From: Crocinitomicaceae bacterium
GTDB lineage: Bacteria > Bacteroidota > Bacteroidia > Flavobacteriales_D > Crocinitomicaceae
Assembly (NCBI GenBank): GCA_014762645.1
Contig: JABURP010000067.1
Coordinates: forward strand, 10,926-74,925
DNA length: 64,000 nucleotides
Direction: 5' to 3'
Both the position numbers and the translations under genes were made by a program. The notes under the pieces are model-generated. The model saw nothing but the letters and a program-made list of their open reading frames with translations, was not told the origin of the DNA and did not search any database. The first letter of the stretch is position 1. Each line of letters begins with the position of its first letter. This document shows positions 2,371 to 17,389 of this stretch, in pieces.

Positions 2371-2384
2371 TGAAAAGCATTTCA
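2371..2384. promoter_or_regulatory. Inverted repeat TGAAA-N4-TTTCA, possible second activator site next to the 2398 palindrome
   Basis: TGAAAAGCATTTCA read directly; centre is 27.5 bp from the 2398-2412 palindrome. Confidence 0.25.
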
Positions 2385-2397
2385 TTCCGAAATTATA

Positions 2398-2412
2398 TTT
2401 TCAATTTGAAAA
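2398..2412. promoter_or_regulatory. Candidate enhancer (UAS) palindrome TTTTCAA-T-TTGAAAA upstream of a sigma-54-type promoter
   Basis: Perfect 7+1+7 palindrome about 74 bp upstream of the GG of the 2478 promoter. The same repeat type recurs at 14858 and 16623. Confidence 0.5.
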
Positions 2413-2477
2413 AACCGTTGACTGCGGATTTTTTATAACTAATTGATTTCTTGTTTATTACAGTAATTACTACGTAT

Positions 2478-2493
2478 TGGTACTGGTTTGGCA
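2478..2493 (+). promoter_or_regulatory. Sigma-54-type -24/-12 promoter (TGGTAC-N5-TGGCA)
   Basis: The GG and GC dinucleotides have the canonical spacing of TGGCAC-N5-TTGC. It lies 58 bp upstream of the ATG at 2551. Confidence 0.5.
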
Positions 2494-2550
2494 ATACTAC
2501 TTTTGACTTAGAACCTAAGGGCTCAAAATAATAAGAACCAAACTAGTGTT

Positions 2551-3561
2551 ATGAATCTCGAAAGAACCAAAAAAGAATACCTGCTATACTCAGTAACTCT
2601 GATTCCACTCGTACTATCAGTTCTCATCTTGAGCTCGTTAGTGTATTCCACACATCAGCAATTATTAGAGCGTGAACAGAAGATTGCGCAGCAACAGAGA
2701 AATATTCAGATGTGGGAAGACCGGAATGAGTTGCAGGCCATCCAAAAAAACTTAGACCTCATCTATCAGCATGAAGATCGGTTACAAACTTTGATTTCCA
2801 AAGTTCGAAAAAGCAAATACACCAAAGCGTTCACTCTTCAATATGATGAGGAGTTATTGTCTATTGAACAACTCGTGCAAAGTGCTTATCTAAAACTTGA
2901 GTTCAGCAATAAACGAATTGGTGATAACCATATTACTTACCAAAGCATGCACAATGAACTTGAGGAAATTTCTCAAAGGTTAAACAACTACCAAAAACAT
3001 AAAAAGGAATTAGAGTTAATCCATCATCTCGTTACTATTAACCCAAATGCGGACATTAGATGGGATGATTTATCAGCCTATGCTATAAATCGGGAACTCA
3101 GTAAGAAAGAAGATGAAATGTATGATCAGGTCATCTACTTTGAAGAAAAAGCCAAGTTGCCTAAAGCCTTTAGAGACGACCTGGCCCTTCACCCCAATGA
3201 GAATAATATGGTGTATTACATGATAGATTCTTATGAAAATCTGGAGAAAAACCATGTGATTCAACAAGAAAACAATGAGTTTTTGGGGTTAACAAGAAAG
3301 TTCGAATTGAAAGATGAATTCAACAAAGAAGATTTCATCCGAATCAATAAGAACAAAGTTCAAAACATCCCCATAAATAGTGAACAAGTCGAATTAATCA
3401 CTGATCACCCTATACAATCTTATTCGTTTTTCACCAATGCTGATGAAACAGAGGTTGTTTATCTCAGCATTTCTGATACGGACAAGTTCTGGGAACAGAG
3501 CAAATACCTGGTAATTGCAACCCGAGATAAAGCAAATTTCAAACTCGCATATAACAACTAA
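2551..3561 (+). CDS. Hypothetical membrane-anchored protein with a long charged, coiled-coil-like region
   Basis: 336 aa ATG ORF with one N-terminal TM helix (LLYSVTLIPLVLSVLILSSLVY). No family recognised. First gene after the sigma-54-type promoter. Confidence 0.5.
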   Translation: MNLERTKKEYLLYSVTLIPLVLSVLILSSLVYSTHQQLLEREQKIAQQQRNIQMWEDRNELQAIQKNLDLIYQHEDRLQTLISKVRKSKYTKAFTLQYDEELLSIEQLVQSAYLKLEFSNKRIGDNHITYQSMHNELEEISQRLNNYQKHKKELELIHHLVTINPNADIRWDDLSAYAINRELSKKEDEMYDQVIYFEEKAKLPKAFRDDLALHPNENNMVYYMIDSYENLEKNHVIQQENNEFLGLTRKFELKDEFNKEDFIRINKNKVQNIPINSEQVELITDHPIQSYSFFTNADETEVVYLSISDTDKFWEQSKYLVIATRDKANFKLAYNN

Positions 3562-3593
3562 ACACACAAGTATTAACTCAAAAATCAATTGTT

Positions 3594-4130
3594 ATGAAAA
3601 CCATAAAAAGAATTTCCATAATTGCATTGTTTTTGTTGTTTGGACCTGGTGTTTACGCACAGGAAACAGGAACAACTCCAACATTAGCAGTCAATAAGAA
3701 ATCATATTCCACTGCAATCGGTTTACGTGCCGGAGGTACATCCGGATTAACGATTAAACAGTTTCTCGGACAACGAAGTGCCCTTGAAGGGATACTCGGT
3801 GTTTGGGGACACGGATTCAGTGCTACACTCCTTTACGAAAACCACGTAAATGCATTCGGTGTACCTGGTTTTAGCTGGTACTTTGGTGCTGGTGGACACG
3901 CCGCATTTCACAGCGGTCATTATGTCTATTATCATAGAGACTTTAGATATGAATATTATGAACCAGGAGCATTTGGACTAGGTGTAGATGGTATTGTCGG
4001 ATTAGAGTATAAAATTCCGCCAATCCCAATGGCCATCAGTTTGGATGTCAAACCTTTCATTGAAGTTATATCAACAGGAAGAGCCTGGATGTCCTTAGAC
4101 CCCGGCCTTGGTATAAAGGTCACTTTTTAA
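3594..4130 (+). CDS. Small outer-membrane beta-barrel (porin-family) protein
   Basis: Signal peptide (ISIIALFLLFGPGVYAQ), Gly/aromatic-rich alternating strands, C-terminal GIKVTF. Confidence 0.6.
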   Translation: MKTIKRISIIALFLLFGPGVYAQETGTTPTLAVNKKSYSTAIGLRAGGTSGLTIKQFLGQRSALEGILGVWGHGFSATLLYENHVNAFGVPGFSWYFGAGGHAAFHSGHYVYYHRDFRYEYYEPGAFGLGVDGIVGLEYKIPPIPMAISLDVKPFIEVISTGRAWMSLDPGLGIKVTF

Positions 4131-4167
4131 GAATGAAAACAACGAACACTTTAAATGAGAACAAATT

Positions 4168-4902
4168 ATGAAAAAAGTAAGTAAGTATCTGATGCTCGTA
4201 TTAATCGCCTTTATAGCGATTGCCTGTAACAAACAGGATCCGATAGATTTAAGGTTAACGCCCAATGATTATTTATCGGATAAACATTACGACAAATTGA
4301 CGGTTGAATTGCTGTATGTTGAGGGCCACGCCCCAAATGCACAAGCCGTAGACAACCTGGAGGCGTTTCTAAATGAGCGTTTAAACAAACCAAAAGGAAT
4401 CTACTTTATAGAAAGAAGTATTCCTGCTACCGGTAATCACAGTTTTTCCATCAGTGATATTGAGGATATAGAAAAAGCAGAGCGAACACAATACAGGAAT
4501 AAGCGAAACCTGGCTGCTTTTATCTTCTATACGGATGCTGAATACGCCGGTAACGAAGGGGACTCCAAAACTCTGGGGGTTCAATACGGACCTTCATCTA
4601 TGGCGCTCTTTGAGCCAACCATTGATGAGTACTCAGGCGGCCTTGGACAGGTTTCAGAAGAAAAATTACAATCAGCAGTTCTCATTCACGAGTTCTGTCA
4701 TGTTCTGGGACTTGTAAACAATGGAACAAAAATGCAGCAGGATCATGAAGATTACAACAATCCGTATCACTGTGATAATGAGGATTGCCTGATGTATTAT
4801 GCTTCTAACACCGGAGACATGCTTGGGATCCTTATACAGGGAGAAAGACCCGAACTGGATCAACAATGTATAGATGATCTACGAGCCAATGGAGGAAAAT
4901 AA
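4168..4902 (+). CDS. Zinc metalloprotease lipoprotein, archaemetzincin-like
   Basis: Lipobox (LIAFIAIAC), HEFCHVLGL zinc motif followed by C-x4-C-x-M (HCDNEDCLMYY). Confidence 0.55.
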   Translation: MKKVSKYLMLVLIAFIAIACNKQDPIDLRLTPNDYLSDKHYDKLTVELLYVEGHAPNAQAVDNLEAFLNERLNKPKGIYFIERSIPATGNHSFSISDIEDIEKAERTQYRNKRNLAAFIFYTDAEYAGNEGDSKTLGVQYGPSSMALFEPTIDEYSGGLGQVSEEKLQSAVLIHEFCHVLGLVNNGTKMQQDHEDYNNPYHCDNEDCLMYYASNTGDMLGILIQGERPELDQQCIDDLRANGGK

Positions 4903-4953
4903 AAGCGTTGTAGAACACAGCAACAAAACAAAAATCCCATAATCTACAACGTA

Positions 4954-4993
4954 AAGGATAAGTCAGCAGAACACTAGTTGACTTATCCTTTTT
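4954..4993 (+). terminator. Rho-independent terminator after the metalloprotease gene
   Basis: 12-bp perfect stem AAGGATAAGTCA / TGACTTATCCTT (4954-4965 with 4979-4990), 13-nt loop, then TTT. Confidence 0.7.
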
Positions 4994-5123
4994 AAAGCTA
5001 AAAAAGGAGCAACCCGCCTATAAGCTCAACTTGCCTAACAAAGACTGTGATCCACAGATTGTGAGCACATTAACCCAAATAAAGAATGTACCTTAAAGTG
5101 TAGACAAACCAAATAAAAACACC

Positions 5124-5618
5124 ATGGATGAGCCAATGATGAATTCCAACGAAACTTCGACACCGATCATCAAAGTGGTCGTTTTAGAAGACAATGAATT
5201 TTACAACAAACTCCTATCAAAAAAACTTCATGCCTGTATAGAGCAAATTGAAATGGAGTTGGCATGTACGGTTGATCTGATCTCTTTCACAAGTGTTGAT
5301 GATTTACTGACCAATCTGGAAACCATACAACAAATAGACGTTGCGTTTATTGATTACTACCTCGGTGATCAGCTGAGTGGTCTTGATATGATGAAAACAA
5401 TTCTGAACTATCACCCGCAGTGTAGTGTTGTGGTATTTTCAAGAAGCCAAAACAAAATGATTGAACAGGATAACTTGAACAATGGCGCGCTGGAATTTAT
5501 TCAAAAGGACCGGAAGGCCTTAAAAAAACTCGTCAACATCTTTGAAGACCTGGTGTTTAAAATCTTTATCAATAAGCAGATAAGGCCTGGAAAACAGTTT
5601 GGGTTTCACCTAAATTAA
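5124..5618 (+). CDS. Stand-alone response-regulator receiver protein
   Basis: VVVLEDNEFYNKLL, VAFIDYYLGD, VVVFSRSQ. Same REC subtype as the NtrC-like REC at 954. Confidence 0.75.
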   Translation: MDEPMMNSNETSTPIIKVVVLEDNEFYNKLLSKKLHACIEQIEMELACTVDLISFTSVDDLLTNLETIQQIDVAFIDYYLGDQLSGLDMMKTILNYHPQCSVVVFSRSQNKMIEQDNLNNGALEFIQKDRKALKKLVNIFEDLVFKIFINKQIRPGKQFGFHLN

Positions 5619-5798
5619 GTGGTATTTCACCAGCTAAATGGGTTTATTCAAACGCGAAAAATAATCGTTCACCATCCAATTTAGTTAGTTAACAGTACAG
5701 GCTATCCCGCCGACCGTCCTGCACTAGGTATTCCAAAGATAAATTCGTAAATTAAAGAAAGCATTTAATCACCTAATATTCAACTAAAAACACACGTC

Positions 5799-6392
5799 AT
5801 GAAAGCAACAATTAAAACAGTCGAGCACCTTATCAGAGCTCTGGACATGTGTTCAGGCGATTATTGTGTAATAGACATTATGAATCAGGCAGATATACCT
5901 GCGTCCGAATTTGAAAACTACTATACGTGGAACGACAATCATTACACGCGTAATAGAATAGCCAAAACTGACAAATACGAAGTATTACTCGTGTGTTGGG
6001 AAGCCGGTCAGGAATCTGCAATTCATGATTTTGATTCACATGAAGCCTGGATACACCCTATTTGTGGTCAACTACGAGAAGAAAGATATATTCAAGCAAA
6101 AAATTCCAACGAACTTATTAAAGTAAGCTCTGTTGTACTTAAGAAAAATGACTTTTCGTACATGCGAGATGTTGGTATTCACAGGTACAGTAATATTTAT
6201 GGAGCCCGAACAGTGAGCCTTGTGATCTTTTCTCCACCACTGAAAAAAATTCGTGTATATGATAAAGAATCAGGAGCTGGTACCTGGCAACAGATCTGGT
6301 ATGATAAAGAGTACGATTTACTCAAGAACCAGGACAAGCATATTAGTCTGGATCAAAATGCAAGTGGTATTGGAAACAATCCGCCAATTTAG
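5799..6392 (+). CDS. Cysteine dioxygenase type I-like cupin with non-canonical active-site residues
   Basis: YTRN...LLVCWEAGQESAIHDFDSHEAW...GQLREE...GIHRYSN...VIFSPP aligns without gaps, from memory, to mammalian CDO ([20 protein letters not shown]...GNLKE...GLHRVEN...HLYSPP). Confidence 0.6.
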   Translation: MKATIKTVEHLIRALDMCSGDYCVIDIMNQADIPASEFENYYTWNDNHYTRNRIAKTDKYEVLLVCWEAGQESAIHDFDSHEAWIHPICGQLREERYIQAKNSNELIKVSSVVLKKNDFSYMRDVGIHRYSNIYGARTVSLVIFSPPLKKIRVYDKESGAGTWQQIWYDKEYDLLKNQDKHISLDQNASGIGNNPPI

Positions 6393-6552
6393 CGGGTGTT
6401 TACCAATGGGTATCAATGTGGAGGATAAACATCCTTCTTAAGAAAATTAAGCAATATGATATATGCCACTCAAAATCATAAACATAAATGTCTATAATGT
6501 TATTATCCGATTATATTGGTGGTATACAATTTATTTGCTAACTTTTTACGAT

Positions 6553-7254
6553 ATGCTCCTGAATACATTAATATTGGATGATGACAAGGTATTTTCAGAC
6601 ATAATGGAACATTACGTCTCCAAAGTCAAATTTTTGCATCATCTCGGAACTTACAAAACTACTTCGGATCTTATCAATTCAGGCAAACTGGATGAAACAG
6701 ACCTTCTTTTCCTTGATATCGAACTCCCCATGATGAACGGGCTTGAATTTTTAGAAATGATGGGGGATAAGGCACCGGCCGTTATCATTATATCTTCTAA
6801 AAAAGAATACGGTGTAGAAGCCTTTGAATATGACGTGTTGGACTATCTACACAAGCCCGTTTCATTTTCTCGTTTTATGAAATCAGCAAACCGGGCATCT
6901 ACAATTCTCAAGAAAGAATTGCTTTCCAAACCCCACAATGACCACTTTTTTATTCGAACAGATGGTCTTTGGATAAGAATGCCTTTTGAAGATGTTTCCC
7001 TCGTAAAGGGAGATAATAACCAGGTGATTATTAAAACAAAAAATGAACGCATAAATAGCCCTATGCGGTTGAAGGACATAATGGAGAAGCTGCCCAAAAC
7101 CAAATTTATGCAAGTCCACAGGTCCTACATTATTCACCTCGATAAGATCACTAAAGTGGACGGCGAAGTAATTGTTGTTGACAACAAAACAGTGCCCGTC
7201 AGCAAAACTTATATAAAAGAACTTTATGAACGATTAAATATAGAACGAAAATGA
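6553..7254 (+). CDS. LytTR-family response regulator (REC + LytTR DNA-binding domain)
   Basis: REC begins at MLLNTLILDDD (ATG 6553), then LFLDIELPMMNG. LytTR-type C-terminus (FMQVHRSYIIHLDKI). The upstream 30 codons of ORF 6463 are AT-rich and unlikely to be coding. Confidence 0.85.
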   Translation: MLLNTLILDDDKVFSDIMEHYVSKVKFLHHLGTYKTTSDLINSGKLDETDLLFLDIELPMMNGLEFLEMMGDKAPAVIIISSKKEYGVEAFEYDVLDYLHKPVSFSRFMKSANRASTILKKELLSKPHNDHFFIRTDGLWIRMPFEDVSLVKGDNNQVIIKTKNERINSPMRLKDIMEKLPKTKFMQVHRSYIIHLDKITKVDGEVIVVDNKTVPVSKTYIKELYERLNIERK

Positions 7255-7622
7255 AACACTTAAGATTTACAATAAAGCGCGTTCGGATAGACAGCAGTTA
7301 GGGTCACAATTGAATAACCATTTCTATGCACTAATTACCCTGCTACCAAGTGTAAACCAAACGACAACAAGCTGTTATGTCAAACGAAACATCAGTGATA
7401 ATGAGACCAACAACTATAAGAACAGACATACAGAAAACTGAAAAATGCGTAATTGTGCTGCTACCTTTCCTAAATAGGAGTGCTCCAAGTTGCATGAAGA
7501 ATACTCGTCACCTCGTGACACCTGAACGGCTGTTCTTAGTCACCTAATGCTGTTCTCATTAATGCCTAAATAAAGGTGATGTCTTAACGGACAACACCAA
7601 ATATTAATGAAAAAGTGTCCCT

Positions 7623-8021
7623 ATGAGTAAAATTAATACCCTTTACCTGGTTGATGACGATAAGAATTATCAGTTTTTTGCTGAACACGTGATAAACTCA
7701 TCCGGAGCAGTAGACAAGTTAAAAGTATTTGGAAATGGCAGAGAAGCTGTGCAGTATATCCAGTCTGTGGTGAACATGAATGAAGAGCTTCCGGATGTTA
7801 TTTTTCTTGATCTGGATATGCCCATCATGGATGGCTGGGAGTTTCTGCAAGAATTCCGATATCTACGCCCTATTTTAGAGAAGAAGATTACCCTGTTTGT
7901 GGTAACATCCTCTGTTAATCCTAAAGACATAATCAAAGCCAAAAGCATGCCTGAGGTTAAGGACTTTATTATTAAACCGGTAACGAAAGAGAAATTTGAT
8001 CAATTAATTAAAAATATTTAA
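7623..8021 (+). CDS. CheY-like stand-alone receiver protein
   Basis: LYLVDDDKNYQ, VIFLDLDMPIMDG, FVVTSS, IKP. Confidence 0.85.
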   Translation: MSKINTLYLVDDDKNYQFFAEHVINSSGAVDKLKVFGNGREAVQYIQSVVNMNEELPDVIFLDLDMPIMDGWEFLQEFRYLRPILEKKITLFVVTSSVNPKDIIKAKSMPEVKDFIIKPVTKEKFDQLIKNI

Positions 8022-8047
8022 TAACGAATCTTGAGTATTGTGGGGAT

Positions 8048-8632
8048 ATGGCAAAAGAAAAAAAGAGTAAAAAAGAACATAAAACCAGTAACACGAAACC
8101 ACCAACAATTAAAGGAATGTTCGTAAACAGTCACATAAATGCACTAAAAAAGGCGAAAGGAGAAAAAAGTCTGACGCTACTGGAAGAAAAATGTGGTTTT
8201 CATCCGCAATTCGGTGCCCTGGAAGATGTTCCTGTTCGTTTGGAAATAGAAATAATAGAACATGTATTAGACATTCTTACGAATGACTCTCTACCCAAAA
8301 ACCAACGCGCTTTTGAAGCCGGCAGATTGCACTTCAACAATTTTCAAAACACAGTATATGGAAGATTAATACTCAACTTTCTGTCAAAAGATTTTAAATC
8401 GGCAATGTTAAACTCACCCAACATTGCCATTTATGTTTTTAAACATATTGAGTTTTCTGTTTTTGATCGGGGAGAAAAATCTGTAATGCTACGAATGGAA
8501 AACAACGATTATAACATTGATCATTTTAGGGGATTTTTCTTTGAGTGGCTTAAAGATTGGGGCTATGATGCCGAAGTAGAAGGTATTGATTACGGTAATG
8601 GCACCTATGAGTATGTAATGAAATGGAAATAG
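8048..8632 (+). CDS. Small H-NOX-like / DUF2378-like sensor-domain protein (family tentative)
   Basis: IKGMFVNSHINALKK..G....LEDV......AGR..FNNF....GRLILNFL follows the N-terminal pattern of bacterial H-NOX (MKGxIV..WI..L....G, LEDI, VGR, GRRLVNFL). The stop overlaps the kinase start by 10 nt. Confidence 0.4.
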   Translation: MAKEKKSKKEHKTSNTKPPTIKGMFVNSHINALKKAKGEKSLTLLEEKCGFHPQFGALEDVPVRLEIEIIEHVLDILTNDSLPKNQRAFEAGRLHFNNFQNTVYGRLILNFLSKDFKSAMLNSPNIAIYVFKHIEFSVFDRGEKSVMLRMENNDYNIDHFRGFFFEWLKDWGYDAEVEGIDYGNGTYEYVMKWK

Positions 8633-11600
8633 ATAAAGAACATACCGACCTTGACGAATATAAAAAATTCGTTAGAGAGCAGCTAGAGGCGTTGTTCCCT
8701 GTCTTTGCTTCGGCAGCTGTGGGAGATTTCTCTCGTAATGTGTCTATTCCTGCTGAAGAAGATGAATTTTCAGAAATTCGGGTGGGTATCCAGGTGATGC
8801 TGGAAGTTATTCGTGATAAAATTGCTGAACTTGAAGAATGGAACGATAAACTTCAGGCAACCGTTTATGACAAAACAAAAGCACTCAACGAGGCACAGTA
8901 TCTTGCTCATATTGGAAGTTGGGAATGGGATGTCCACAATAATAAAATTACCTGGTCCAATGAATTGTACCGTATTTACGGTCTAACCCCACAGGAAAAA
9001 GAAATTGACTTCGAAGTTTTTCTTGAGATGATTCACCCCGAAAGTAGAGAGATGGTTCAAAATGTTATTAATGAGGCATATGAGTCTGGTAAGCCCTTTA
9101 ATTTCTACCATAAAATTATTAAAAAAGATGGAAGCGAGCGGATTCTACATGGTCGCGGTAAAGTAATTCTCAATGAAAAGAAAGAACCCGTAAAAATGCT
9201 GGGAACCGCCCAGGATGTAACAGAGTTAAAACTCGCCGAAGCCCAGTTAATTAATGCTAAAAAAGATCTCTCTGCAAAAGTTGAACAGCGAACAAAAAAA
9301 ATAGGACAGGTATTGCAAGACCTCCGTGAAGAAATGGAGCAGCGCAAGCAAGCGCAAGAAGAAGCTGAAAAACTGGCAACCATAGTTGAAACTTCTAACG
9401 ATTCCATATTAAGTAAAACCCTGGATGGGAAAATATTGAGTTGGAACAAGGCTTCAGAAAAACTTTATGGTTACAAAGCCAAAGAAATTATTGGAAAGAA
9501 CGTATTAACCATTGTTCCTCCGGATAAGAGGAAGGAACACAAAGAGATCATGCGTAAATTAAAAATGGGTAAGGGACTTAAAAGCTTTCGTACTACGCGA
9601 CTCTCAAAAAGTGGTGAAATTATATATATCAGTCTCACCTTATCCCCAATACATGACAAAAAGGGAAAGGTAATCGGAGCTTCAAGTATTGCTAAAGATA
9701 TTTCTGAAAGGGTGAAAGCCCAGGAGCAGTTAAAAGAAAGCCAGGAACGACTTTCCAGCTTTATGAATGCTGCTAAAGACATTTTTGTCATTATTGATAA
9801 GGACCTTAACCTAAAAGACATTAACAAAGCTGGTTTAAAGTTACTCCGATCACGCTCTAAAAAGAAACTGGTAGGTCAACCTGCTGACAAGATATTGTCC
9901 ATGTTTGACAAACGTTTCCGAGCTAAAACTTTTAAAGAAACCTTAAAAAGTGGCAAGCCTCAAAAATTTGAAGAAGCAATCGTTGACCTCAAAGGAAACC
10001 AACGCCATTACATTACAGATGTCTTTAGGATCGATAATGGTTTGGGTGTGATTAGTCGTGATATTACCAAACAAAAACACTACGAAACAGAACTCAACGA
10101 GAGCGAAAGAAAATACAGAACGCTGGTTGAAACCATGAATGAAGGTATCGTCATGGTGAACAAATCCAAAGAAATTGAATTTGTAAATGATGCTTTTTGC
10201 AATTGGTTTGGCTATCGTCAAAAAGAACTAATTGGTAAAAAATTACATTCACTTGTAGAGAGTGATAACAAATCCAAACAAAAAGAAATTGACCGTAAAT
10301 CACTATCCAAACCACAACAATACGAAATTGAAATGCGTGGCAAAGACAATCGCAGCATGTGGATGCTTGTCAACAGTGCCCCAATTTATGATGAAGATGG
10401 AAGCAGCATTGGTTCGGTGGGACTCTATACCGACATCAGTCAACGAAAAAAATACGAAGCCGAACTGGATCTTTTAGCAAAATTCCCTGCAGAAGACCCC
10501 AACCCGGTATTGCGTTTCTCAATGAACGATCGTGTGCTCACCTATGTCAACAAAGCTGCAAAACATTTTATCAACTTTTTTGAAGGAGAAAGGGAGTTGC
10601 GCAAGAAATGGATGAACATAATAAACGAGGTTTACAAGGGAGGTAAAGTAGTTAAAGAAGAATTGGTGGTAAATGAACGTATTTACTTAATTACCATGGT
10701 TCCGATCAAGGAAGGAAAGTATATCAATTTTTACGGAACAGATATTACCACAGCAAAAAAAGCCGAAGAAGAGATTAGAAGGTTATTATTTGTTCTTGGA
10801 CAAACAGATAACTCTATTGTTATTGCTGATTCCAAAGGATATATTCAGTGGGTAAATGCAGCCTTTGAAAAAACAACCGGTTATTCGCTGGAAGATGTTA
10901 AAGGAACTCACGGAGAAAAGCTGCGACACGGAAAACGAACAGGTTTGGATATCGAGCATCCATCCTATAAAAAGATGCTTAAAACACGTAAATCTGTGTC
11001 TTATGAAAGCAAGAACTATACAAAATCAGGAGAAGAATACTGGTCGTTAACCAACCTAACACCTGTGCTTGCAGAAGATGGAGGAATTGAAGGAATTGTA
11101 GCGGTAGATACTGACGTAACAGAAAAAAAGAGAGCCGAACACGCTATGCTACACGCTAAAAGGCTTGCCGAAGTTTCATCCAAAGCCAAAGAACGCTTTT
11201 TGGCTAATATGAGTCACGAGATACGTACCCCCATGAATGCTATAATGGGGATCATTCAATTACTACAGGAAACGAATGTAGATGAACAACAAAAAGAATA
11301 TCTCCGATCCATAGATTTTGCCGGTGAAAATTTACTGCGTATTATCAATGATGTCCTTGACCTCTCAAAGATTGAATCTGGTAAGTTAAGCGTGGAAGAA
11401 ATTCCGTTCAATCCAAAATACATCTTAAATGACCTGGTCAACTCCATGAGTCACCGGGCACATGAAAACAATATTGAACTTCGGTTGGAACTTGATGAGG
11501 AAATCCCTGAAAATATTATGGGAGACCCGGTACGTGTCAATCAAATTCTCATAAACTTGGTGGGCAACGCCATTAAGTTTACAGATGAAGGACACGTAAA

Positions 11601-12300
11601 ACTAACGGTCCGTCTCCTTGAAGAAAAAGACAATAAATGCAAATTGAGTTTTGCTGTTGAAGATACCGGAATTGGTATCCCGGAAAAATTACAAAATCAA
11701 ATCTTTCAGGAATTTGAGCAGGCTCAGAATGAAACTACCCGAAAAAAAGGAGGAACCGGTCTTGGACTGGCCATTGTACGTAGACTAGTAAGGTTGATGG
11801 ACGGTAAACTAAGCCTTCAAAGCAAGGCAGGTGAAGGATCGGTGTTCACGATTGAATTACCGTTTAAAAAGGCAGAAAAAGATCAATCCCAGGGAAATTT
11901 TGTTGGCGAAGGTTTAAAAAATAGCGGCCAGTTAGAAGGTAAGCGAATCCTATTGGTGGAAGATAATAAACTCAACCAAATGGTTGCTGAAAAATTCCTT
12001 ATTTCAATGGGCCTTGAGGTTGAAATTGCCGGTGACGGAAGTGAAGCGATTAAACTACTCAAAGATAATAAGTACGACGCTATTCTTATGGATATAAGAA
12101 TGCCGGAAATGGATGGGTACATGGCCACCCAGTACATCCGAAAAAAAATGAAATCTAAAATCCCAATAATGGCCATGACGGCGCATGCGCTAAACAAAGA
12201 AGAAAAAAAGTGTTTTAAGGTAGGCATGAATGACTACATTACTAAACCCTTGAAGAAACAACGCCTGTTTGAAAAGATTGTTGAACTCGTTAAAAAATAA
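8623..12300 (+). CDS. Hybrid sensor histidine kinase with about six PAS-type modules, HisKA, HATPase_c and a C-terminal REC
   Basis: Repeated PAS cores (IGSWEWDV..ITWSNELYRIYG, ILSWNKASEKLYGYKAKEIIGKN, IEFVNDAFCNWFGYRQKELIGKK, IQWVNAAFEKTTGYSLEDVKG). H-box FLANMSHEIRTPMNAI, then N, G1 and G2 boxes. REC ILLVEDNKLNQ, AILMDIRMPEMDG. Confidence 0.92.
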   Translation: MEIDKEHTDLDEYKKFVREQLEALFPVFASAAVGDFSRNVSIPAEEDEFSEIRVGIQVMLEVIRDKIAELEEWNDKLQATVYDKTKALNEAQYLAHIGSWEWDVHNNKITWSNELYRIYGLTPQEKEIDFEVFLEMIHPESREMVQNVINEAYESGKPFNFYHKIIKKDGSERILHGRGKVILNEKKEPVKMLGTAQDVTELKLAEAQLINAKKDLSAKVEQRTKKIGQVLQDLREEMEQRKQAQEEAEKLATIVETSNDSILSKTLDGKILSWNKASEKLYGYKAKEIIGKNVLTIVPPDKRKEHKEIMRKLKMGKGLKSFRTTRLSKSGEIIYISLTLSPIHDKKGKVIGASSIAKDISERVKAQEQLKESQERLSSFMNAAKDIFVIIDKDLNLKDINKAGLKLLRSRSKKKLVGQPADKILSMFDKRFRAKTFKETLKSGKPQKFEEAIVDLKGNQRHYITDVFRIDNGLGVISRDITKQKHYETELNESERKYRTLVETMNEGIVMVNKSKEIEFVNDAFCNWFGYRQKELIGKKLHSLVESDNKSKQKEIDRKSLSKPQQYEIEMRGKDNRSMWMLVNSAPIYDEDGSSIGSVGLYTDISQRKKYEAELDLLAKFPAEDPNPVLRFSMNDRVLTYVNKAAKHFINFFEGERELRKKWMNIINEVYKGGKVVKEELVVNERIYLITMVPIKEGKYINFYGTDITTAKKAEEEIRRLLFVLGQTDNSIVIADSKGYIQWVNAAFEKTTGYSLEDVKGTHGEKLRHGKRTGLDIEHPSYKKMLKTRKSVSYESKNYTKSGEEYWSLTNLTPVLAEDGGIEGIVAVDTDVTEKKRAEHAMLHAKRLAEVSSKAKERFLANMSHEIRTPMNAIMGIIQLLQETNVDEQQKEYLRSIDFAGENLLRIINDVLDLSKIESGKLSVEEIPFNPKYILNDLVNSMSHRAHENNIELRLELDEEIPENIMGDPVRVNQILINLVGNAIKFTDEGHVKLTVRLLEEKDNKCKLSFAVEDTGIGIPEKLQNQIFQEFEQAQNETTRKKGGTGLGLAIVRRLVRLMDGKLSLQSKAGEGSVFTIELPFKKAEKDQSQGNFVGEGLKNSGQLEGKRILLVEDNKLNQMVAEKFLISMGLEVEIAGDGSEAIKLLKDNKYDAILMDIRMPEMDGYMATQYIRKKMKSKIPIMAMTAHALNKEEKKCFKVGMNDYITKPLKKQRLFEKIVELVKK

Positions 12301-12306
12301 GAAGGT

Positions 12307-12651
12307 ATGTTAAGTGTTGAAGACTTGAAGAAATATTTGGACTGTGATGATGATTTCATTGTAACACTCATCAATAACTTCCTTGAAGAATCAAAGGAAA
12401 TGATGGATAAGATGAACAGTGGGTTAAAATCTCTGGACCGTAAAGCAATTGGATCAGCGGCACATAAAATGTTAAGCTCTACCCGTATTTTGAAACTGGA
12501 CGATTTAACGAGTGAATTAGTAAACCTGGAAAAAGCTATACATGAAGGTGCCAAGAATTCTAAAATTGAAAAACACGTTGAGGAAATCAATTCGCGTTAC
12601 GAAACACTCAAGATAGAAGTGAAATCAATCCGGGATGAATTGAAGGGCTAG
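12307..12651 (+). CDS. Stand-alone HPt phosphotransfer protein
   Basis: 114 aa helical protein with AAHKMLSSTRILKLD (HPt His helix), directly after the hybrid kinase. Confidence 0.7.
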   Translation: MLSVEDLKKYLDCDDDFIVTLINNFLEESKEMMDKMNSGLKSLDRKAIGSAAHKMLSSTRILKLDDLTSELVNLEKAIHEGAKNSKIEKHVEEINSRYETLKIEVKSIRDELKG

Positions 12652-12657
12652 TTTATT

Positions 12658-14262
12658 CTACTCAATAAATAACCTGCGTTTAATAAGTCGATCTCCTGTA
12701 TTATAAATAATATAATATTTCCCTTTTTCAAACAGTTTTAAATCCAATGTAAGTGTGTTTTCATCTACCGCAGGGTAATGTTCCGTTGTGTAAACTTCTC
12801 TACCGATAAAATCATATATCGATATATCACCACCGTTCAGGGTTTTATCAAAAACAACATTGAATTCTCCATTAGATGGGTTCGGATAAATAAACATCTC
12901 CTCCGGCGCCGGTTCTACTGCATAAGTGCTCAGTTGACCAATGGCCACCAACAACGTTTTATAGGCATTGATTCTCCCCGCTCCTAATTGACCTTCGTAT
13001 CCAGAATTCAATTGATCAATTGGATCACATCCATTTTCAATAAATGTCTTCACATCCTGAGCGGATGCTCCAGGTTCAAGTGACATCACTAAACCAGCAA
13101 GTGCTGCAACCACCGGGCTTGCCATAGATGTACCACTTAGATAGCCGTAAGAATTTTGACCTTCAACAAGTGTACTTTCAATACCTAATCCCGGTGCCAT
13201 AACATCTACCCAGCTACCGTAGTTTGAAAAACCTGCTCGCATGTCATTTTGATCCGTTGCTCCTACTGAAAATACATAAGAATATCCAGCAGGATAATGC
13301 ATTGCAGAGGTATCTGAGTTACCCGCAGCAGCCACCATTAAGATGCCCTGTGCTTGCGCCTGACTTACCAGTAAATCCCATGTTAAAAATGAGTCTGAAC
13401 TACCAAATGACATGTTGATTATATCTGCACCTGCAGATATTGCATAATCAACCCCTTCATAAGCATGTGTCAAATAAGTACCGTCACCGGCGTCTTCCGA
13501 ACACTTTACAGGGATTATTGATATGGAGTATCCCAAAGAAGAAACACCCATGCCGTTGTCAGTTGTTGCTGAAACAATTCCGGCTACGTGTGTTCCGTGA
13601 ATAAATTGACTGGTATTTACAGTGCCTACCGGTGGACGCGGATCATTATCATCATCTGCCACATCATATCCATTTATATCATCCGCATAACCATTTAGAT
13701 CATCATCTAAAGTATTTCCAGGATTTTCATTGGGATTGTTGTAAATATTTGCCTGAAGATCTTCATGATCAATTGCCACTGCATTATCTACAACGGCAAC
13801 TTTTACTGAAGAAGATCCGGTAGTAAGGTTCCAGGCATCCGGCGCTTGTATTTTATCAAGATACCATTGACTACTCGAATTATAATCATTTGGAACAAGG
13901 TCCAAATTATAGATTGGGGCTTTTTCTGCATACTCAACAAATGGCAGTGCTTCCAAATCACTAATTATAGAATTAGCCGATATAATATCATCAAAAGCAA
14001 ACCTGTATACCTTTTGTAGTGATGCATTTGGGGTTTTAAACGGTTTCTTTATTTCGTATACCGAATAATTTGCCACAATTTGATCAAGATCCGGAATACC
14101 ACCCGCATAGTTTGATAAGTCTACTGCGCTGGTGTCTTCAACCTTCATGTAAATCACCCCATCTAAAAAATTGGGTTCAACCAATTGGGCGAAACTATGA
14201 CTGATAGATAACAACAGTGCCAGTATACTACTTACAATAACTTTAGGTAAAAATCTCTTCAT
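12658..14262 (-). CDS. Secreted subtilisin-like serine protease (S8) with T9SS C-terminal sorting domain
   Basis: Signal peptide, catalytic triad motifs (VAVVDNAV, HGTHVAGI, GTSMASP), C-terminal IYPNPSNGEFNV...ISIYDFIGREV...GKYYI type CTD. Confidence 0.9.
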   Translation of the reverse strand: MKRFLPKVIVSSILALLLSISHSFAQLVEPNFLDGVIYMKVEDTSAVDLSNYAGGIPDLDQIVANYSVYEIKKPFKTPNASLQKVYRFAFDDIISANSIISDLEALPFVEYAEKAPIYNLDLVPNDYNSSSQWYLDKIQAPDAWNLTTGSSSVKVAVVDNAVAIDHEDLQANIYNNPNENPGNTLDDDLNGYADDINGYDVADDDNDPRPPVGTVNTSQFIHGTHVAGIVSATTDNGMGVSSLGYSISIIPVKCSEDAGDGTYLTHAYEGVDYAISAGADIINMSFGSSDSFLTWDLLVSQAQAQGILMVAAAGNSDTSAMHYPAGYSYVFSVGATDQNDMRAGFSNYGSWVDVMAPGLGIESTLVEGQNSYGYLSGTSMASPVVAALAGLVMSLEPGASAQDVKTFIENGCDPIDQLNSGYEGQLGAGRINAYKTLLVAIGQLSTYAVEPAPEEMFIYPNPSNGEFNVVFDKTLNGGDISIYDFIGREVYTTEHYPAVDENTLTLDLKLFEKGKYYIIYNTGDRLIKRRLFIE

Positions 14263-14310
14263 ATCCTTCTCTTTTAGTAATCATTCATAAATAACCGATC
14301 TACTCCTAAT

Positions 14311-14748
14311 TTAGGATGCAACTCTCGGCTTATTCAATTCGGCATCCAGCGCTTTTTGTATAGCAGAACCAATTCGGTTTTTCGTAGATACCGTTTTATC
14401 GATATAATCGAAAACACCTTTTCTCATTAATTCTGCGGTTACGTGCGCACTCTGTTGTTCACTTACCACAATAACTTTACAATCATCACAATACTCCCTG
14501 ACGATTTCAAATACGTCCAGACCATTGAGCTCTTCGTTTGATAAGTTGTGATCAAGTATCATAATCGTTGTATCCTTCTCCAACTTCTCAATGCAGTCTT
14601 CAGGATCCTTGTATGATTTAATATCAAAATCAAGGTCGAGATAAACCGCTCCATTGCAGATATTTTTTATATATCTGTTCAGTGCTTTGTTGTAGTAATC
14701 ATCATCTTCAAGAATGACAACTTTGATTATTTTCTTTCTAAACTTCAT
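14311..14748 (-). CDS. Stand-alone receiver protein
   Basis: VVILEDDDYYNKAL, IMILDHNLSNEELNG, VIVVSEQQ. Confidence 0.8.
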   Translation of the reverse strand: MKFRKKIIKVVILEDDDYYNKALNRYIKNICNGAVYLDLDFDIKSYKDPEDCIEKLEKDTTIMILDHNLSNEELNGLDVFEIVREYCDDCKVIVVSEQQSAHVTAELMRKGVFDYIDKTVSTKNRIGSAIQKALDAELNKPRVAS

Positions 14749-14775
14749 AGTGCATGTATTTTCTATATAATAACG

Positions 14776-14791
14776 TGCTATAACAGTGCCA
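14776..14791 (-). promoter_or_regulatory. Sigma-54-type -24/-12 promoter (minus-strand TGGCAC-N5-TAGCA)
   Basis: Plus strand reads TGCTA-TAACA-GTGCCA. GG/GC spacing is canonical. It lies 28 bp upstream of the start at 14748. Confidence 0.55.
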
Positions 14792-14857
14792 ACAAGGCGC
14801 CTAAAGTCGTAACTTGCTGTTTATCAATATGTTTTAAGAAATGACTGAAAAGAGATA

Positions 14858-14872
14858 TTTTCATTTTGAAAA
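14858..14872. promoter_or_regulatory. Candidate enhancer palindrome TTTTCA-TTT-TGAAAA
   Basis: Perfect 6+3+6 inverted repeat about 75 bp upstream of the GG of the 14776 promoter. Confidence 0.5.
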
Positions 14873-14877
14873 AATAT

Positions 14878-14892
14878 TTTTCAGTATTGACG
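14878..14892. promoter_or_regulatory. Degenerate second copy of the enhancer repeat (TTTTCA-GTA-TTGACG)
   Basis: Left half-site intact; centre is 20 bp from the 14858 palindrome. Confidence 0.3.
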
Positions 14893-14918
14893 GAGTGTGT
14901 ATCAGAAGATTGCCGGGC

Positions 14919-15290
14919 CTAATGCGGTGTTTGCGTATTTTCCAACTCTTTAAGTACCTCTTCCAAAGAGATCATAAGGTTACTTTTCAAGCTTTTCCAG
15001 GTGATTTCAAGTTTCTCGGTATCGTTTTCACGCCCCATTTTCTCTATTAACTTAAGATCTTTATAGACTTCATTTGCCTGCATGTGCATGAAAGAAGAAC
15101 AAAGTTTATGCGCGCTATCGGCCATCTTATCGAAGTTTTTTTGCCGCATGTTTTTCTCAATATCAACTAAACCTCTTTTGCATCCATCCCTAAAGGTCTG
15201 TAGCATATCAACATAAAACTCCTGATCTCCTTCACTCAATTCCCGGAGATTTGAAAAATCTAATATTTTCTCAGGAACTCTCGCACTCAT
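14919..15290 (-). CDS. Stand-alone HPt phosphotransfer protein
   Basis: 123 aa helical protein with SAHKLCSSFMHMQA His helix. Confidence 0.65.
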   Translation of the reverse strand: MSARVPEKILDFSNLRELSEGDQEFYVDMLQTFRDGCKRGLVDIEKNMRQKNFDKMADSAHKLCSSFMHMQANEVYKDLKLIEKMGRENDTEKLEITWKSLKSNLMISLEEVLKELENTQTPH

Positions 15291-15322
15291 ATTTATGTCT
15301 TATTGGTTCAATTTCTCATGGT

Positions 15323-15730
15323 TCAGTCACCATTATTAAGGGCTAGTAATTCTTTAACAGTTTCCTGTAGTTGTTCAAATAAATTATCTGAATCTTTATG
15401 TATGATGGCATCAAACTCCATTGTTTTAAGTTCACTAAGGGTTTTCTCATCATTGATGCCCGTTAACATAATAACCGGAATTTCTAATCCTTCAGAACGG
15501 ATATGTTTAAGTACATCAGCGCCATTCATTGCGCCGGTATCTTTGGTATCAAGAATATAATCCAGGATAATTAGTTTAGGTTTGTCCACGGACAATTGCT
15601 GAATCATTAACTCGCCGGTTTGAAAATCCTGCACGGTTAAATCACCAATACCCTGAATTACGGCAGATAGAATATTTGAAACTGTCGTACTATCATCTAC
15701 CAGAAATATGAATCCGTTCTCTTTCATCAT
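15323..15730 (-). CDS. CheY-like stand-alone receiver protein
   Basis: FIFLVDDSTTV, LIILDYILDTKDTGAMNG, VIMLTG, IHK. Confidence 0.8.
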   Translation of the reverse strand: MMKENGFIFLVDDSTTVSNILSAVIQGIGDLTVQDFQTGELMIQQLSVDKPKLIILDYILDTKDTGAMNGADVLKHIRSEGLEIPVIMLTGINDEKTLSELKTMEFDAIIHKDSDNLFEQLQETVKELLALNNGD

Positions 15731-15748
15731 TTGCTTTGTTTTGTTGTC

Positions 15749-16189
15749 TTAGGCACTAAGCTGAATTTTTTGCTCTATCAGTGCACATGTTTTAAAGAGC
15801 AGGTCTTTATCACCTTTGAATAAAAAACCGGTGGCCCCTTTGTCAATAGTATGGTACGCCGTTAGATCAGTGTACTGTTGTGAAGTAACATAGACTTCAC
15901 AGTCTGGTTGATACTTCTTAAATTCAGGAATAAGATCTATTGCCGTACAATTATCGTCAAGATAATAATCTAAAAATGCAATGTCATACTTTTCCTTATC
16001 TAATTTTAATGTGGCCGGATCGTGTATAGCATTAATCCGCACAGTACAATCCGATTGGAAAATTGATGATCCCAACCTGCGTGTCAGCCATTTCTTAACA
16101 AAATCAACATAAAACTGATTGTCATCAATAATGGCAATTGAAATTAACTTTTTCTTTGATAACTCCATACTCTTCATATTTAAAATCAT
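15749..16189 (-). CDS. Stand-alone receiver protein (DYYL subtype)
   Basis: IAIIDDNQFYVDF, IAFLDYYLDD, VYVTSQQ. Confidence 0.75.
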   Translation of the reverse strand: MILNMKSMELSKKKLISIAIIDDNQFYVDFVKKWLTRRLGSSIFQSDCTVRINAIHDPATLKLDKEKYDIAFLDYYLDDNCTAIDLIPEFKKYQPDCEVYVTSQQYTDLTAYHTIDKGATGFLFKGDKDLLFKTCALIEQKIQLSA

Positions 16190-16209
16190 CCTTCAACTTT
16201 CCTTCTCTA

Positions 16210-16467
16210 CTATTTAAATACGAATGTTCTTTCGTGATTTTCCTTTTCAGGTAACTGGTCTTTAACCGGTTGAATAATGTCCTTTTGATCAGACTGGATG
16301 AGGTCCAAATATCTGTCTTCAAAAGCAGTAACTTTATGTTTCACTGCATTTTGGCCTTGTTTTTTATCTAATTGATACGAAATAACTGAGATTACCAGGA
16401 TAGCAATCATCAATATAATCATAGCTAAGGATAAGGCCACATATGCTAATAATCTTATATTTTTCAT
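16210..16467 (-). CDS. Small single-pass membrane protein, hypothetical
   Basis: 85 aa with an N-terminal TM helix (LLAYVALSLAMIILMIAILVISVI). First ORF after the sigma-54-type promoter. Confidence 0.45.
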   Translation of the reverse strand: MKNIRLLAYVALSLAMIILMIAILVISVISYQLDKKQGQNAVKHKVTAFEDRYLDLIQSDQKDIIQPVKDQLPEKENHERTFVFK

Positions 16468-16504
16468 GACGCTGATTTTTGAGGATTAATGCTAAACTTC
16501 TTAT

Positions 16505-16520
16505 TGCCAATTGAGTGCCA
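16505..16520 (-). promoter_or_regulatory. Sigma-54-type -24/-12 promoter (minus-strand TGGCAC-N5-TGGCA)
   Basis: Plus strand reads TGCCA-ATTGA-GTGCCA. It lies 38 bp upstream of the start at 16467. Confidence 0.55.
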
Positions 16521-16622
16521 TAAACCAGTCACTGCCCTAAAAATCAACACCTAAATCTTAATATTCAACGATTTAGGCAAATTTGCATGCCTGTACTAAA
16601 AAAGCGTTATTCTATCCAGATA

Positions 16623-16637
16623 TTTCCATTTTGAAAA
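16623..16637. promoter_or_regulatory. Candidate enhancer repeat TTTCCA-TTT-TGAAAA
   Basis: 11 of 12 palindromic positions match; about 111 bp upstream of the GG of the 16505 promoter. Confidence 0.45.
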
Positions 16638-16642
16638 TATAA

Positions 16643-16657
16643 TTTTCATTTTGAGTG
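16643..16657. promoter_or_regulatory. Degenerate enhancer repeat TTTTCA-TTT-TGAGTG
   Basis: Left half-site intact; centre is 20 bp from the 16623 repeat. Confidence 0.3.
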
Positions 16658-16747
16658 CCATAAAAAACAGGACGATATAACCCAAAAAAGGTATTCGAAA
16701 GGCTTACAGGGCCTACATTTTACAGAAATTGAATAGGTGATAAATTA

Positions 16748-17389
16748 TTAAGAATCTCCAAGAAAGTCAGCTTTTGCAACCAATAACTTTAGGGCATCCA
16801 TATCCTTAATGATCAATTTGTGTTGTTCACTCCGAACTATATTCTTGCTTTCCATATTACTTAGAACCTTCTTTGCGCGGCGTGAAGAAATATTAGAAAT
16901 TGACGCCATTTTATTTAAGTCGGGCTCCAAATAATATTGCTTCTTCTTAATACCTTCACTGCGCGTATTCAACATCATCATTGAAAGCAACCTTTTCGTT
17001 GCTGATGTTTCCCGAAGTATCTGGATCATGTTATCGACTTTGTTCAACTGACAAATTACTTGTTGCATGCATCTGGTAACCATTTGAGGTCGATCCATAA
17101 CAAATTGTTGCAGTTGTGACCTGTCAAATAATCTTACTTTCGTATCTGAAGTAGCCTGAAGGGAATAAAAAGAAGTGCTTTCATGCGAAAATAGCGGAAT
17201 CAAATCTACCGGTTCGTTGTTCGTTCGCAGGAGTACTGATCTGTTGTTTTTATTCAACACCAGACATCCGTGTTCAACAAAGGCGATTGAAGTTGAAATT
17301 TCCCCTTCGTCAAATAAGGTATCCCCTTTTTTCAATTCAATGGTTCTTGATTCTACAGAAGAAGTTATATCGTTCAAAAGCGTTTCCAA
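16748..17389 (-). CDS. Crp/Fnr-family regulator without a Cys cluster and with a divergent HTH (TTG start as listed)
   Basis: cNMP-binding-like beta-roll (KKGDTLFDEGEISTSIAFVEHGCLVL). C-terminal HTH ISNISSRRAKKVLSNM. No in-frame ATG near the 5' end. Confidence 0.65.
   Translation of the reverse strand: METLLNDITSSVESRTIELKKGDTLFDEGEISTSIAFVEHGCLVLNKNNRSVLLRTNNEPVDLIPLFSHESTSFYSLQATSDTKVRLFDRSQLQQFVMDRPQMVTRCMQQVICQLNKVDNMIQILRETSATKRLLSMMMLNTRSEGIKKKQYYLEPDLNKMASISNISSRRAKKVLSNMESKNIVRSEQHKLIIKDMDALKLLVAKADFLGDS

Follow-up and report, generated by a model that had tools for sequence, protein, structure and literature searches.

Three -24/-12 elements and paired palindromes next to an NtrC-type activator gene

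The DNA analyzed here is a 64-kb stretch (hereafter the window) of contig JABURP010000067.1, which derives from a mangrove metagenome and belongs to a Crocinitomicaceae bacterium of the phylum Bacteroidota. It encodes an NtrC-type activator and carries three promoter-like elements of the sigma-54 (-24/-12) type, termed P1, P2, and P3, each of which is preceded by a pair of palindromic sequences. The relation between these three components is the subject of this report. The features in question are the following:

954-2336, plus strand: NtrC-type activator with a receiver domain (REC), an AAA+ domain with a GAFTGA motif and a Fis-type helix-turn-helix (HTH) domain; Pfam Sigma54_activat (9.8e-70), Response_reg, and AAA_lid_14
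2379-2393: distal, degenerate site of P1, ATTTCATTCCGAAAT (9/12), 19 bp from the strong site
2398-2412: proximal predicted activator site of P1, TTTTCAATTTGAAAA, centre 74 bp from GG
2478-2493, plus strand: P1, sigma-54-type promoter TGGTAC-N5-TGGCA, ATG 57 nt downstream
14776-14791, minus strand: P2, sigma-54-type promoter TGGCAC-N5-TAGCA, ATG 27 nt downstream
14858-14872: proximal predicted P2 activator site, minus-strand sequence TTTTCAAAATGAAAA, centre 75 bp from GG
14878-14892: distal, degenerate P2 site, minus-strand sequence CGTCAATACTGAAAA (8/12, with an intact right half TGAAAA), 20 bp further upstream
16505-16520, minus strand: P3, sigma-54-type promoter TGGCAC-N5-TGGCA, ATG 37 nt downstream
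16623-16637: proximal predicted P3 activator site, minus-strand sequence TTTTCAAAATGGAAA, centre 111 bp from GG
16643-16657: distal site of P3, CACTCAAAATGAAAA (9/12), centre 131 bp from GG, 20 bp further upstream

Distances were measured from the palindrome centre to the first G of the GG. An initial annotation of this DNA had proposed the three -24/-12 elements with their GG/GC spacing and the three inverted repeats upstream of them, and all six were found where it had placed them. Its distance of 74-75 bp between repeat centre and GG at the first two sites agrees with the measured values of 74 and 75 bp, the third being 111 bp. The degenerate second copies that it had described 20 bp further upstream at the latter two sites were also recovered (8/12 and 9/12), together with the P1 copy at 19 bp, which had gone unmentioned.

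Both types of element are rare in the window. The pattern TGGYAC-N5-TNGCA has four matches, whereas 0.19 are expected from shuffled sequences, and in P1, P2, and P3 the GG and GC are exactly 10 nt apart, as is characteristic of sigma-54 promoters. The palindrome TTTYCA-N3-TGAAAA occurs at no more than three sites in 64 kb (2398-2412, 14858-14872, and 16623-16637), with 0.23 expected. A relaxed scan of the whole window for a composite of promoter and palindrome returned P1, P2, and P3 alone, and the 20-bp tandem at P3 was also recovered by an independent repeat search. The fourth promoter match, TGGTAC-N5-TGGCA at 13120-13135 on the minus strand, is intragenic in a protease gene described below, lacks a strong upstream palindrome, and is probably due to chance. 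We also considered the palindrome as a terminator or a mobile repeat and rejected both, as its stem consists of six A/T pairs and its copies occur solely in enhancer position.

The activator and its presumed kinase

The activator carries GAFTGA at residues 226-231, conserved residues D16, D59, and K109, and a C-terminal HTH with the sequence LGIGQTTVYRMLKE, whose recognition helix reads IGQTTVYR. Thus, the receiver with a phospho-acceptor aspartate, the AAA+ domain with GAFTGA, and the C-terminal HTH that define NtrC-type regulators are all present. A phmmer search of six-frame translations identified 954-2336 as the sole sigma-54 activator in the window, in agreement with the initial annotation. 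The protein scores below every NCBIfam equivalog cutoff (NtrC, AtoC, ZraR, LuxO, GlrR, and NtrX), its best match being ntrC (TIGR01818) with 388.7 bits against a cutoff of 558.6, and the closest solved structure is Aquifex NtrC4 (4l4u, 2.4e-87). By these sequence comparisons it is a member of the Group I (NtrC-type) family of bacterial enhancer-binding proteins (bEBPs) and the orthologue of no named regulator. An exact-sequence look-up of the activator protein returned no record.

The gene upstream of the activator encodes its presumed cognate kinase:

2-868, plus strand: C-terminus of a hybrid histidine kinase with REC and Hpt domains (Pfam Response_reg and Hpt), no stop codon from base 2, running off the start of the window

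In 63 of 70 related loci, the gene immediately 5' of the activator encodes a hybrid kinase of about 800 residues. In one of them (L005), its domain order is CHASE3-HisKA-HATPase-REC-Hpt. All receivers examined keep the phospho-acceptor aspartate and the lysine.

Conservation of the arrangement in related genomes

With the activator as query and one genome per species, we collected 80 Bacteroidota loci whose activators are 57-67% identical. They belong to Vicingaceae, Crocinitomicaceae, Fluviicola, and Parvicellaceae and, more distantly, to Bacteroidales, Prolixibacteraceae, and others. For close comparison, the window was combined with the 36 nearest loci (L001-L036), giving 711 kb.

Exact copies of TTTTCA-N3-TGAAAA follow closely on the activator gene in the 36 nearest loci and recur there in two or three other intergenic positions nearby. 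The layout is that of the window: tandem palindromes 20 bp apart, a spacer, TGGYAY-N5-T(T/G/A)G, and an ATG 20-45 nt further on. Within the close comparison set, 60 of the 67 exact palindromes lie 60-135 nt from TGG[CTA]A[CT]-N5-TNG, where 2% would be expected. This coupling of palindrome and promoter, with the same discrete distances and 20-bp tandem pairs, was found in about 25 related genomes. In 42 of 57 promoters the two sites of a pair are 20 bp apart, to which the 19 bp at P1 come close. Measured from the GG, 34 of the 57 have their proximal site at 73-76 bp and a further 13 at 106-111 bp; the second class, with centres at 108-111 and 128-131 bp, precedes genes for receivers termed REC-B and for lipoproteins. 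P1 and P2 (74 and 75 bp) and P3 (111 and 131 bp) fall into these two classes.

The promoters of the relatives precede orthologues of genes that also follow the promoters of the window, namely the receiver REC-A, a 178-aa barrel, REC-B-like receivers, and lipoproteins, and a Cbp1-like protein, DUF4382, and a zincin lipoprotein are found deeper in these operons. REC-A orthologues are usually the first genes downstream of the activator. The 178-aa barrel orthologues (50-64% identity) have activator sites and a promoter of their own, and the REC-B-like receivers are related to the window proteins encoded at 5124-5618 and 15749-16189. Locus L005 illustrates the arrangement with three units, each preceded by activator sites and a promoter:

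L005 unit 1: REC-B, a 142-aa protein, CHASE3 hybrid kinase (HisKA-HATPase-REC-Hpt), activator, REC
L005 unit 2: REC-A, outer-membrane protein barrel, Cbp1-like protein
L005 unit 3: 178-aa barrel, DUF4382, zincin-like protein

Because the kinase-activator operon follows activator sites and a promoter in relatives, autoregulation is implied there; the 5' part of the kinase gene falls outside the window. When the 178-aa barrel was used as query in an independent protein search, homologues turned up in the cultured species Parvicella tangerina and Marinoscillum furvescens. Both species carry the barrel gene a short way 3' of the kinase-activator pair (with REC-A in between in P. tangerina) and a matching palindrome after the activator gene. 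Only M. furvescens has a clear promoter match, whereas the -24 element of P. tangerina reads CGG instead of TGG. Since the same layout recurs in dozens of related genomes, the regulatory circuit appears to be real and conventionally built, serving genes of the cell envelope and of signalling.

Some features of the relatives were noted in passing. Vicingaceae-like genomes carry a terminator-like hairpin with a T-run between the enhancer pair and the REC-A promoter (L005, approximately 11850-11890; equivalents in L001, L006, L007, and L011-L017), so that the enhancer comes before the terminator of the operon 5' to it. In the window, a weak hairpin CCGTTGACTGCGG followed by T6 at 2415-2435 corresponds to this element. 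Leaders of the REC-A and 178-aa barrel genes in relatives share a conserved motif, CGAACnATAAAA, between promoter and ATG, and its counterpart in the P1 leader is TTAGAACCTAAG at 2509-2520.

The spacer between the P1 sites and the promoter contains one further element:

2436-2448, minus strand: element like the integration host factor (IHF) consensus, AATCAATTAGTTA, a perfect match to WATCAANNNNTTR

In the spacers of the 57 related promoters, WATCAANNNNTTR has 11 matches where 0.74 would be expected, and the majority stand 41-45 nt before the TGG. The P2 and P3 spacers contain one-mismatch versions only. We regard a role of this element as a DNA-bending site as possible and as a lead only.

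Recognition helix and half-site change together

The palindrome pair sits just after the stop codon of the activator gene across the phylum (80 loci), and across the same loci the recognition helix of the activator and the half-site downstream of its gene change together:

IGQTT(V/I)YR: half-site TTTTCA in 27/27 loci with a palindrome
IG(V/I)STIYR: half-site TTCTCA in 15/18 loci
IGKSTIYR: half-site TTCCCA in 3/3 loci
IG(V/T)AT(V/I)YR: half-site TATCA in 5/6 loci
IGQSTIYR: mixed half-sites in 5 loci (2 TTCTCA, 1 TTCCCA, 2 TA(T/C)CA-like)

In the more distant loci (L039-L080; Bacteroidales, Prolixibacteraceae, and others), we observed the same architecture just 3' of the activator gene, with half-sites TTCTCA, TATCA, TTCCCA, and TTACCA and promoters of the form TGG(C/T/A)CC-N5-TTTGT before a 327-aa Cbp1-like gene.

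Covariation of helix and half-site is to be expected of an activator that reads the palindromes, and the action of another regulator is hard to reconcile with it. Candidates for such a regulator are encoded nearby. The palindromes might be operators of a Crp/Fnr-type protein (16748-17389 or 17476-18186) or of a LytTR response regulator (6463-7254), with the activator acting elsewhere or without specific sites. One Crp-family gene indeed has its end some 90 bp away from the P3 sites, and dimeric HTH regulators in general typically use palindromes of such size whose centre is AT-rich. The palindrome, however, tracks the activator gene in 80 loci and covaries with its recognition helix, no Crp or LytTR gene is conserved as a neighbour there, and the fixed distances of 74/94 or 110/130 bp to the -24/-12 element represent bEBP enhancer geometry. 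We therefore consider operators of another factor very unlikely. Conservation and covariation together show, as far as comparative data can, that sites and activator belong to each other.

The predicted transcription units behind P1, P2, and P3

P1 directs toward the following genes:

2551-3561, plus strand: N-terminally anchored coiled-coil protein, distant relative of the Cbp1 family (NCBIfam Cbp1_fam_LP, 9.2e-23)
3594-4130, plus strand: small secreted 8-stranded outer-membrane beta-barrel, 178 aa (structure model)
4168-4902, plus strand: lipoprotein with the zincin motif HEFCHVLGL (translation)
4953-4993, plus strand: strong hairpin with T-run, probable P1 operon terminator (RNAfold)

The first protein reaches 81.1 bits and thereby stays below the family cutoff of 90 (NF052320). 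Homologues occur in 46 of 75 loci at less than 3 kb on the 3' side of the activator and are the first gene there in 22 (mostly Bacteroidales), so that the order of activator, sites, and Cbp1-like gene at P1 is the widespread one. Collagen binding is known solely for Cbp1 of Bacteroides fragilis (BF0586), which has been studied only as an adhesin and for which no regulator has been reported (PMC3949742).

The AlphaFold2 model of the 178-aa protein (pLDDT 86.5) contains eight long strands. The best Foldseek matches are OmpW, the OmpA transmembrane domain, and OprH with TM-scores of 0.5-0.59; the protein has a signal peptide, and its sequence ends in IKVTF with the C-terminal aromatic residue of such barrels. 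On the basis of this model, its fold is an OmpW/OmpA-TM/OprH-like barrel. Profile comparison with the OMP_b-brl family gave a probability of 15%, confined to the signal-peptide region. The sole record in an exact look-up of the protein was a 4.5-kb contig from a mangrove metagenome run. Orthologues of the zincin lipoprotein (43-53% identity) occur in the same clusters, and that of L005 has a weak Reprolysin_2 match. The predicted hairpin at 4953-4993 likely terminates the P1 operon. Neither activator sites nor a promoter were detected between this terminator and the next gene, a receiver gene at 5124-5618, in scans for the site and for the composite.

The P2 unit comprises:

14311-14748, minus strand: REC-A, receiver-only protein (Pfam Response_reg)
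12658-14262, minus strand: S8 subtilase with a type IX secretion system (T9SS) C-terminal sorting domain (Pfam), following P2

REC-A is the window protein most similar to the activator receiver (3.5e-13) and conserves the phospho-acceptor aspartate. It is 45-53% identical to the product of the gene directly 3' of the activator in at least 20 relatives, each with a pair of activator sites and a promoter. The gap of 48 nt between REC-A and the protease gene contains no terminator-like fold, and co-transcription of the two from P2 is plausible. The membership of the protease in the regulon is uncertain, because no orthologue occupies such a position in relatives.

The P3 unit comprises four genes:

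16210-16467, minus strand: 85-aa protein with an N-terminal transmembrane segment, no homologue in related loci
15749-16189, minus strand: receiver-only protein, REC-B-like (Pfam)
15323-15730, minus strand: receiver-only protein (Pfam), aspartate and lysine conserved
14919-15290, minus strand: stand-alone Hpt protein (Pfam Hpt)

The protein encoded at 15749-16189 is 28-36% identical to the products of REC-B genes that carry activator sites and a promoter in relatives. Within the loci, the Hpt protein is closest to the C-terminal Hpt domains of the activator-adjacent kinases of about 810 residues (33-45% identity, BLASTP). The receiver-only proteins share an EDxxxYNK signature with the activator receiver and are its nearest paralogues in the window. 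All gene descriptions of the initial annotation for these units, from the membrane protein, the beta-barrel, and the metalloprotease lipoprotein to the REC and Hpt proteins and the T9SS-secreted S8 protease, were borne out.

The sequence of P3 raises the question of whether just some of the three sites are functional, with P3 in particular as a possible decayed or duplicated copy. Its palindrome, at 111 bp, has TTTCCA in place of TTTTCA, and a 14-nt direct repeat that includes TGGCAC occurs at 16511-16524 and 16651-16664. These distances (111/131 bp) nevertheless correspond to the second conserved class (108-111/128-131), which in relatives stands before REC-B and lipoprotein genes, and P3 itself precedes a REC-B-like gene. 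That only some of the three sites work is therefore very improbable in our view. As for the repeat, it is exact (TTGAGTGCCATAAA) and duplicates the P3 -24 element at a distance of 140 bp on the upstream side. This second copy coincides in part with the distal activator site of P3 and lacks a correctly spaced -12 GC; it could be a duplication remnant or a second holoenzyme docking site.

Probable assignment of the three sites to one sigma-54 regulon

Taken together, P1, P2, and P3 are very probably enhancer-dependent (sigma-54) promoters that belong to a single local regulon under the control of the response regulator encoded at 954-2336. The initial annotation had proposed such control of all three units by the adjacent activator, and the proposal gains support from the recurrence of the arrangement, the orthologous targets, the positions of the sites, and the covariation of helix and half-site.

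Several observations weigh against this assignment. First, the canonical -12 C is present in just 13 of the 57 activator-linked promoters of relatives, which thus depart from the textbook TTGCW. Their -12 region consists of TTGG, TTAG, or TTTG plus any base, whereas P1, P2, and P3 all keep the GC. The strict pattern TGGYAC-N5-TNGCW had almost no matches in relatives and was loosened to TGG[CTA]A[CT]-N5-TNG after the -12 C was seen not to be conserved; the invariance of these promoters is therefore partly imposed by the pattern, which itself fixes those bases. Second, the two distance classes (74 versus approximately 110 bp) differ by a non-integral number of helical turns. Third, the helix classes follow clades, so that the independent changes are few and shared ancestry contributes to the covariation. 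Fourth, rpoN was found neither in the window nor in the collected related loci, and sigma-54 itself is consequently assumed. A search for RNA runs holding the window sequence found none. Finally, a sigmaA-type -7 box, TACTTTTG (TAnnTTTG), lies at 2498-2505 directly 3' of P1 and has no counterpart at P2 and P3; it may have arisen by chance or may be a basal promoter giving activator-independent transcription. A scan with the sigma-70 consensus, which is not appropriate for Bacteroidota, gave matches at chance level.

The TACTTTTG box and the poorly conserved -12 C could be taken to mean that the -24/-12 matches are unused and that sigmaA, through the -7 box, or an extracytoplasmic function (ECF) sigma factor transcribes the genes, with the palindrome-bound activator serving as a conventional activator or repressor; this is hardly credible, as TGG at -24 and G at -12 stand at exact spacing at 60 of 67 palindromes versus 2% by chance, TAnnTTTG is absent from P2 and P3 and not conserved in aligned relatives, and the AAA+ domain with its GAFTGA motif, the only known function of which is to remodel the sigma-54 holoenzyme, is intact.

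A proposed regulatory circuit

On the assignment to a sigma-54 regulon, the signal would pass from the hybrid kinase to its own receiver, on to its Hpt domain, and from there to Asp59 of the activator in a His-Asp-His relay. Activator dimers would then bind the paired 15-bp sites TTTTCA-N3-TGAAAA through the QTTVYR helix of the Fis-type HTH. The sites of a pair are 20 bp or approximately two helical turns apart, and their centres precede the -24 GG by 74/94 bp at P1 and P2 and by 111/131 bp at P3. According to the established bEBP mechanism, the tandem sites would nucleate an AAA+ ring, which loops to the closed sigma-54 holoenzyme at TGGYAC-N5-TRGCA and opens the promoter by means of ATP and the GAFTGA loop. 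Looping may be aided by an IHF/HU-type bend in the spacer.

Transcription from P1 would yield the Cbp1-like coiled-coil protein, the 8-stranded barrel, and the zincin lipoprotein and end at the terminator at 4953-4993. P2 would serve REC-A and perhaps the T9SS S8 protease, and P3 the small membrane protein, the two receiver-only proteins, and the Hpt protein. Since all its structural targets are proteins of the envelope, the regulon would remodel the cell envelope. Such targets fit the CHASE3 domain as an extracytoplasmic sensor and, by analogy, the reported role of sigma-54 in Flavobacterium psychrophilum. In addition, the regulon would induce spare parts of the phosphorelay, namely receiver paralogues and an Hpt paralogue. 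Most likely, these act as phosphate sinks or as branches that provide feedback.

Comparison with known systems

In the enteric NtrB/NtrC-glnAp2 system, a REC-AAA+-HTH regulator oligomerizes upon phosphorylation, a -24/-12 promoter is preceded by palindromic dimer sites in tandem, and the DNA between them loops. The predicted circuit shares the regulator type and the tandem sites in front of the promoter. The activator is, however, not an NtrC orthologue (TIGR01818, 389 versus 559 bits), and it is paired with a hybrid REC-Hpt kinase, with TTTTCA-N3-TGAAAA sites at 74/94 or 110/130 bp, and with envelope and signalling targets instead of nitrogen assimilation. The Aquifex aeolicus regulators NtrC4 and NtrC1 (4l4u and 1ny5) have the same three-domain layout, and full-length comparison gave E-values of 2.4e-87 and 5.3e-82; they belong to another phylum, and their regulon and DNA site are unrelated.

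The LuxQ/LuxU/LuxO system of Vibrio resembles the proposed relay in that phosphate from a hybrid kinase reaches a sigma-54 activator via Hpt. LuxO and LuxQ models are also among the best NCBIfam matches for the activator and the L005 kinase, respectively, all of them below equivalog cutoffs. Unlike in Vibrio, the Hpt domain is fused to the kinase here, an extra stand-alone Hpt protein and receivers are members of the predicted regulon, and no small-RNA targets were seen. With ZraS/ZraR-zraP, the circuit has in common that a sigma-54 activator would control envelope proteins and, in relatives, its own operon, as suggested by the activator sites and promoter before REC-B, kinase, and activator in L005. 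The differences are that the activator is not a ZraR orthologue (312 versus 760 bits) and that a CHASE3 sensor and other targets are involved.

Within the Bacteroidota, the closest parallel is the sigma-54 regulon of F. psychrophilum (motif SM4), in which -24/-12 promoters with mapped starts drive genes for envelope stress, gliding, and exported proteins; the genome of that species encodes three enhancer-binding proteins (PMC9723704). This regulon shares the phylum and the promoter type with the circuit described here, whereas the present family is that of Crocinitomicaceae and Vicingaceae-like lineages. That study assigned no activator sites and linked none of the enhancer-binding proteins to particular promoters (PMC9723704).

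Sigma-54 regulation is poorly mapped in the Bacteroidota. Our literature search for a Bacteroidota enhancer-binding-protein regulon of this kind, or for its binding site, returned only general sigma-54 surveys and the F. psychrophilum start map, and the published work we found defines promoters rather than pairs of activator and promoter. The architecture itself, an NtrC-type enhancer with a -24/-12 promoter, is textbook. The locus and its relatives provide an entry point into sigma-54 signalling in this phylum and offer a complete, testable wiring diagram for one conserved activator, comprising the likely kinase, the DNA site, the spacing rules, and the target genes. The covariation of helix and half-site lends itself to a specificity-swap experiment, and the placement of receiver-only and Hpt genes behind predicted sigma-54 promoters points to inducible feedback within a phosphorelay. 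Cultured carriers are P. tangerina, M. furvescens, Crocinitomix catalasitica, and Tangfeifania diversioriginum.

Tentatively, and with somewhat less than even confidence, we suggest that the locus exemplifies an uncharacterized envelope-signalling module present throughout the Bacteroidota. Such a module would consist of a CHASE3 hybrid kinase, a sigma-54 activator, and a Cbp1-like or outer-membrane target, with a co-evolved code of helix and half-site (QTT/TTTTCA, VST/TTCTCA, KST/TTCCCA, and VAT/TATCA), promoters that commonly lack the -12 C, and activator-induced receiver and Hpt paralogues as decoys or branches.

Neighbouring genes

Between the P1 unit and the P2 and P3 units lies a second set of signalling genes (5124-12651) without activator sites:

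5124-5618: REC-B-like receiver, preceded by the P1 terminator
within 5124-12651: cysteine dioxygenase
6463-7254: LytTR response regulator
7623-8021: receiver
8623-12300: 1225-aa hybrid kinase with four PAS domains, overlapped by a DUF2378 gene
12307-12651: Hpt protein

Beyond P3, the region 16748-36700 looks like a nitrogen-oxide or anaerobic-respiration neighbourhood. It encodes three Crp/Fnr-type regulators (16748, 17476, and 31284), the molybdenum cofactor proteins MoeA, a MoaC-MogA fusion, and MoaA, as well as hemerythrin/ScdA proteins, major facilitator superfamily (MFS) transporters, and a NorB-like haem-copper oxidase with cytochrome c. Two tandem paralogues of beta-eliminating lyases are encoded at 32054-34834.

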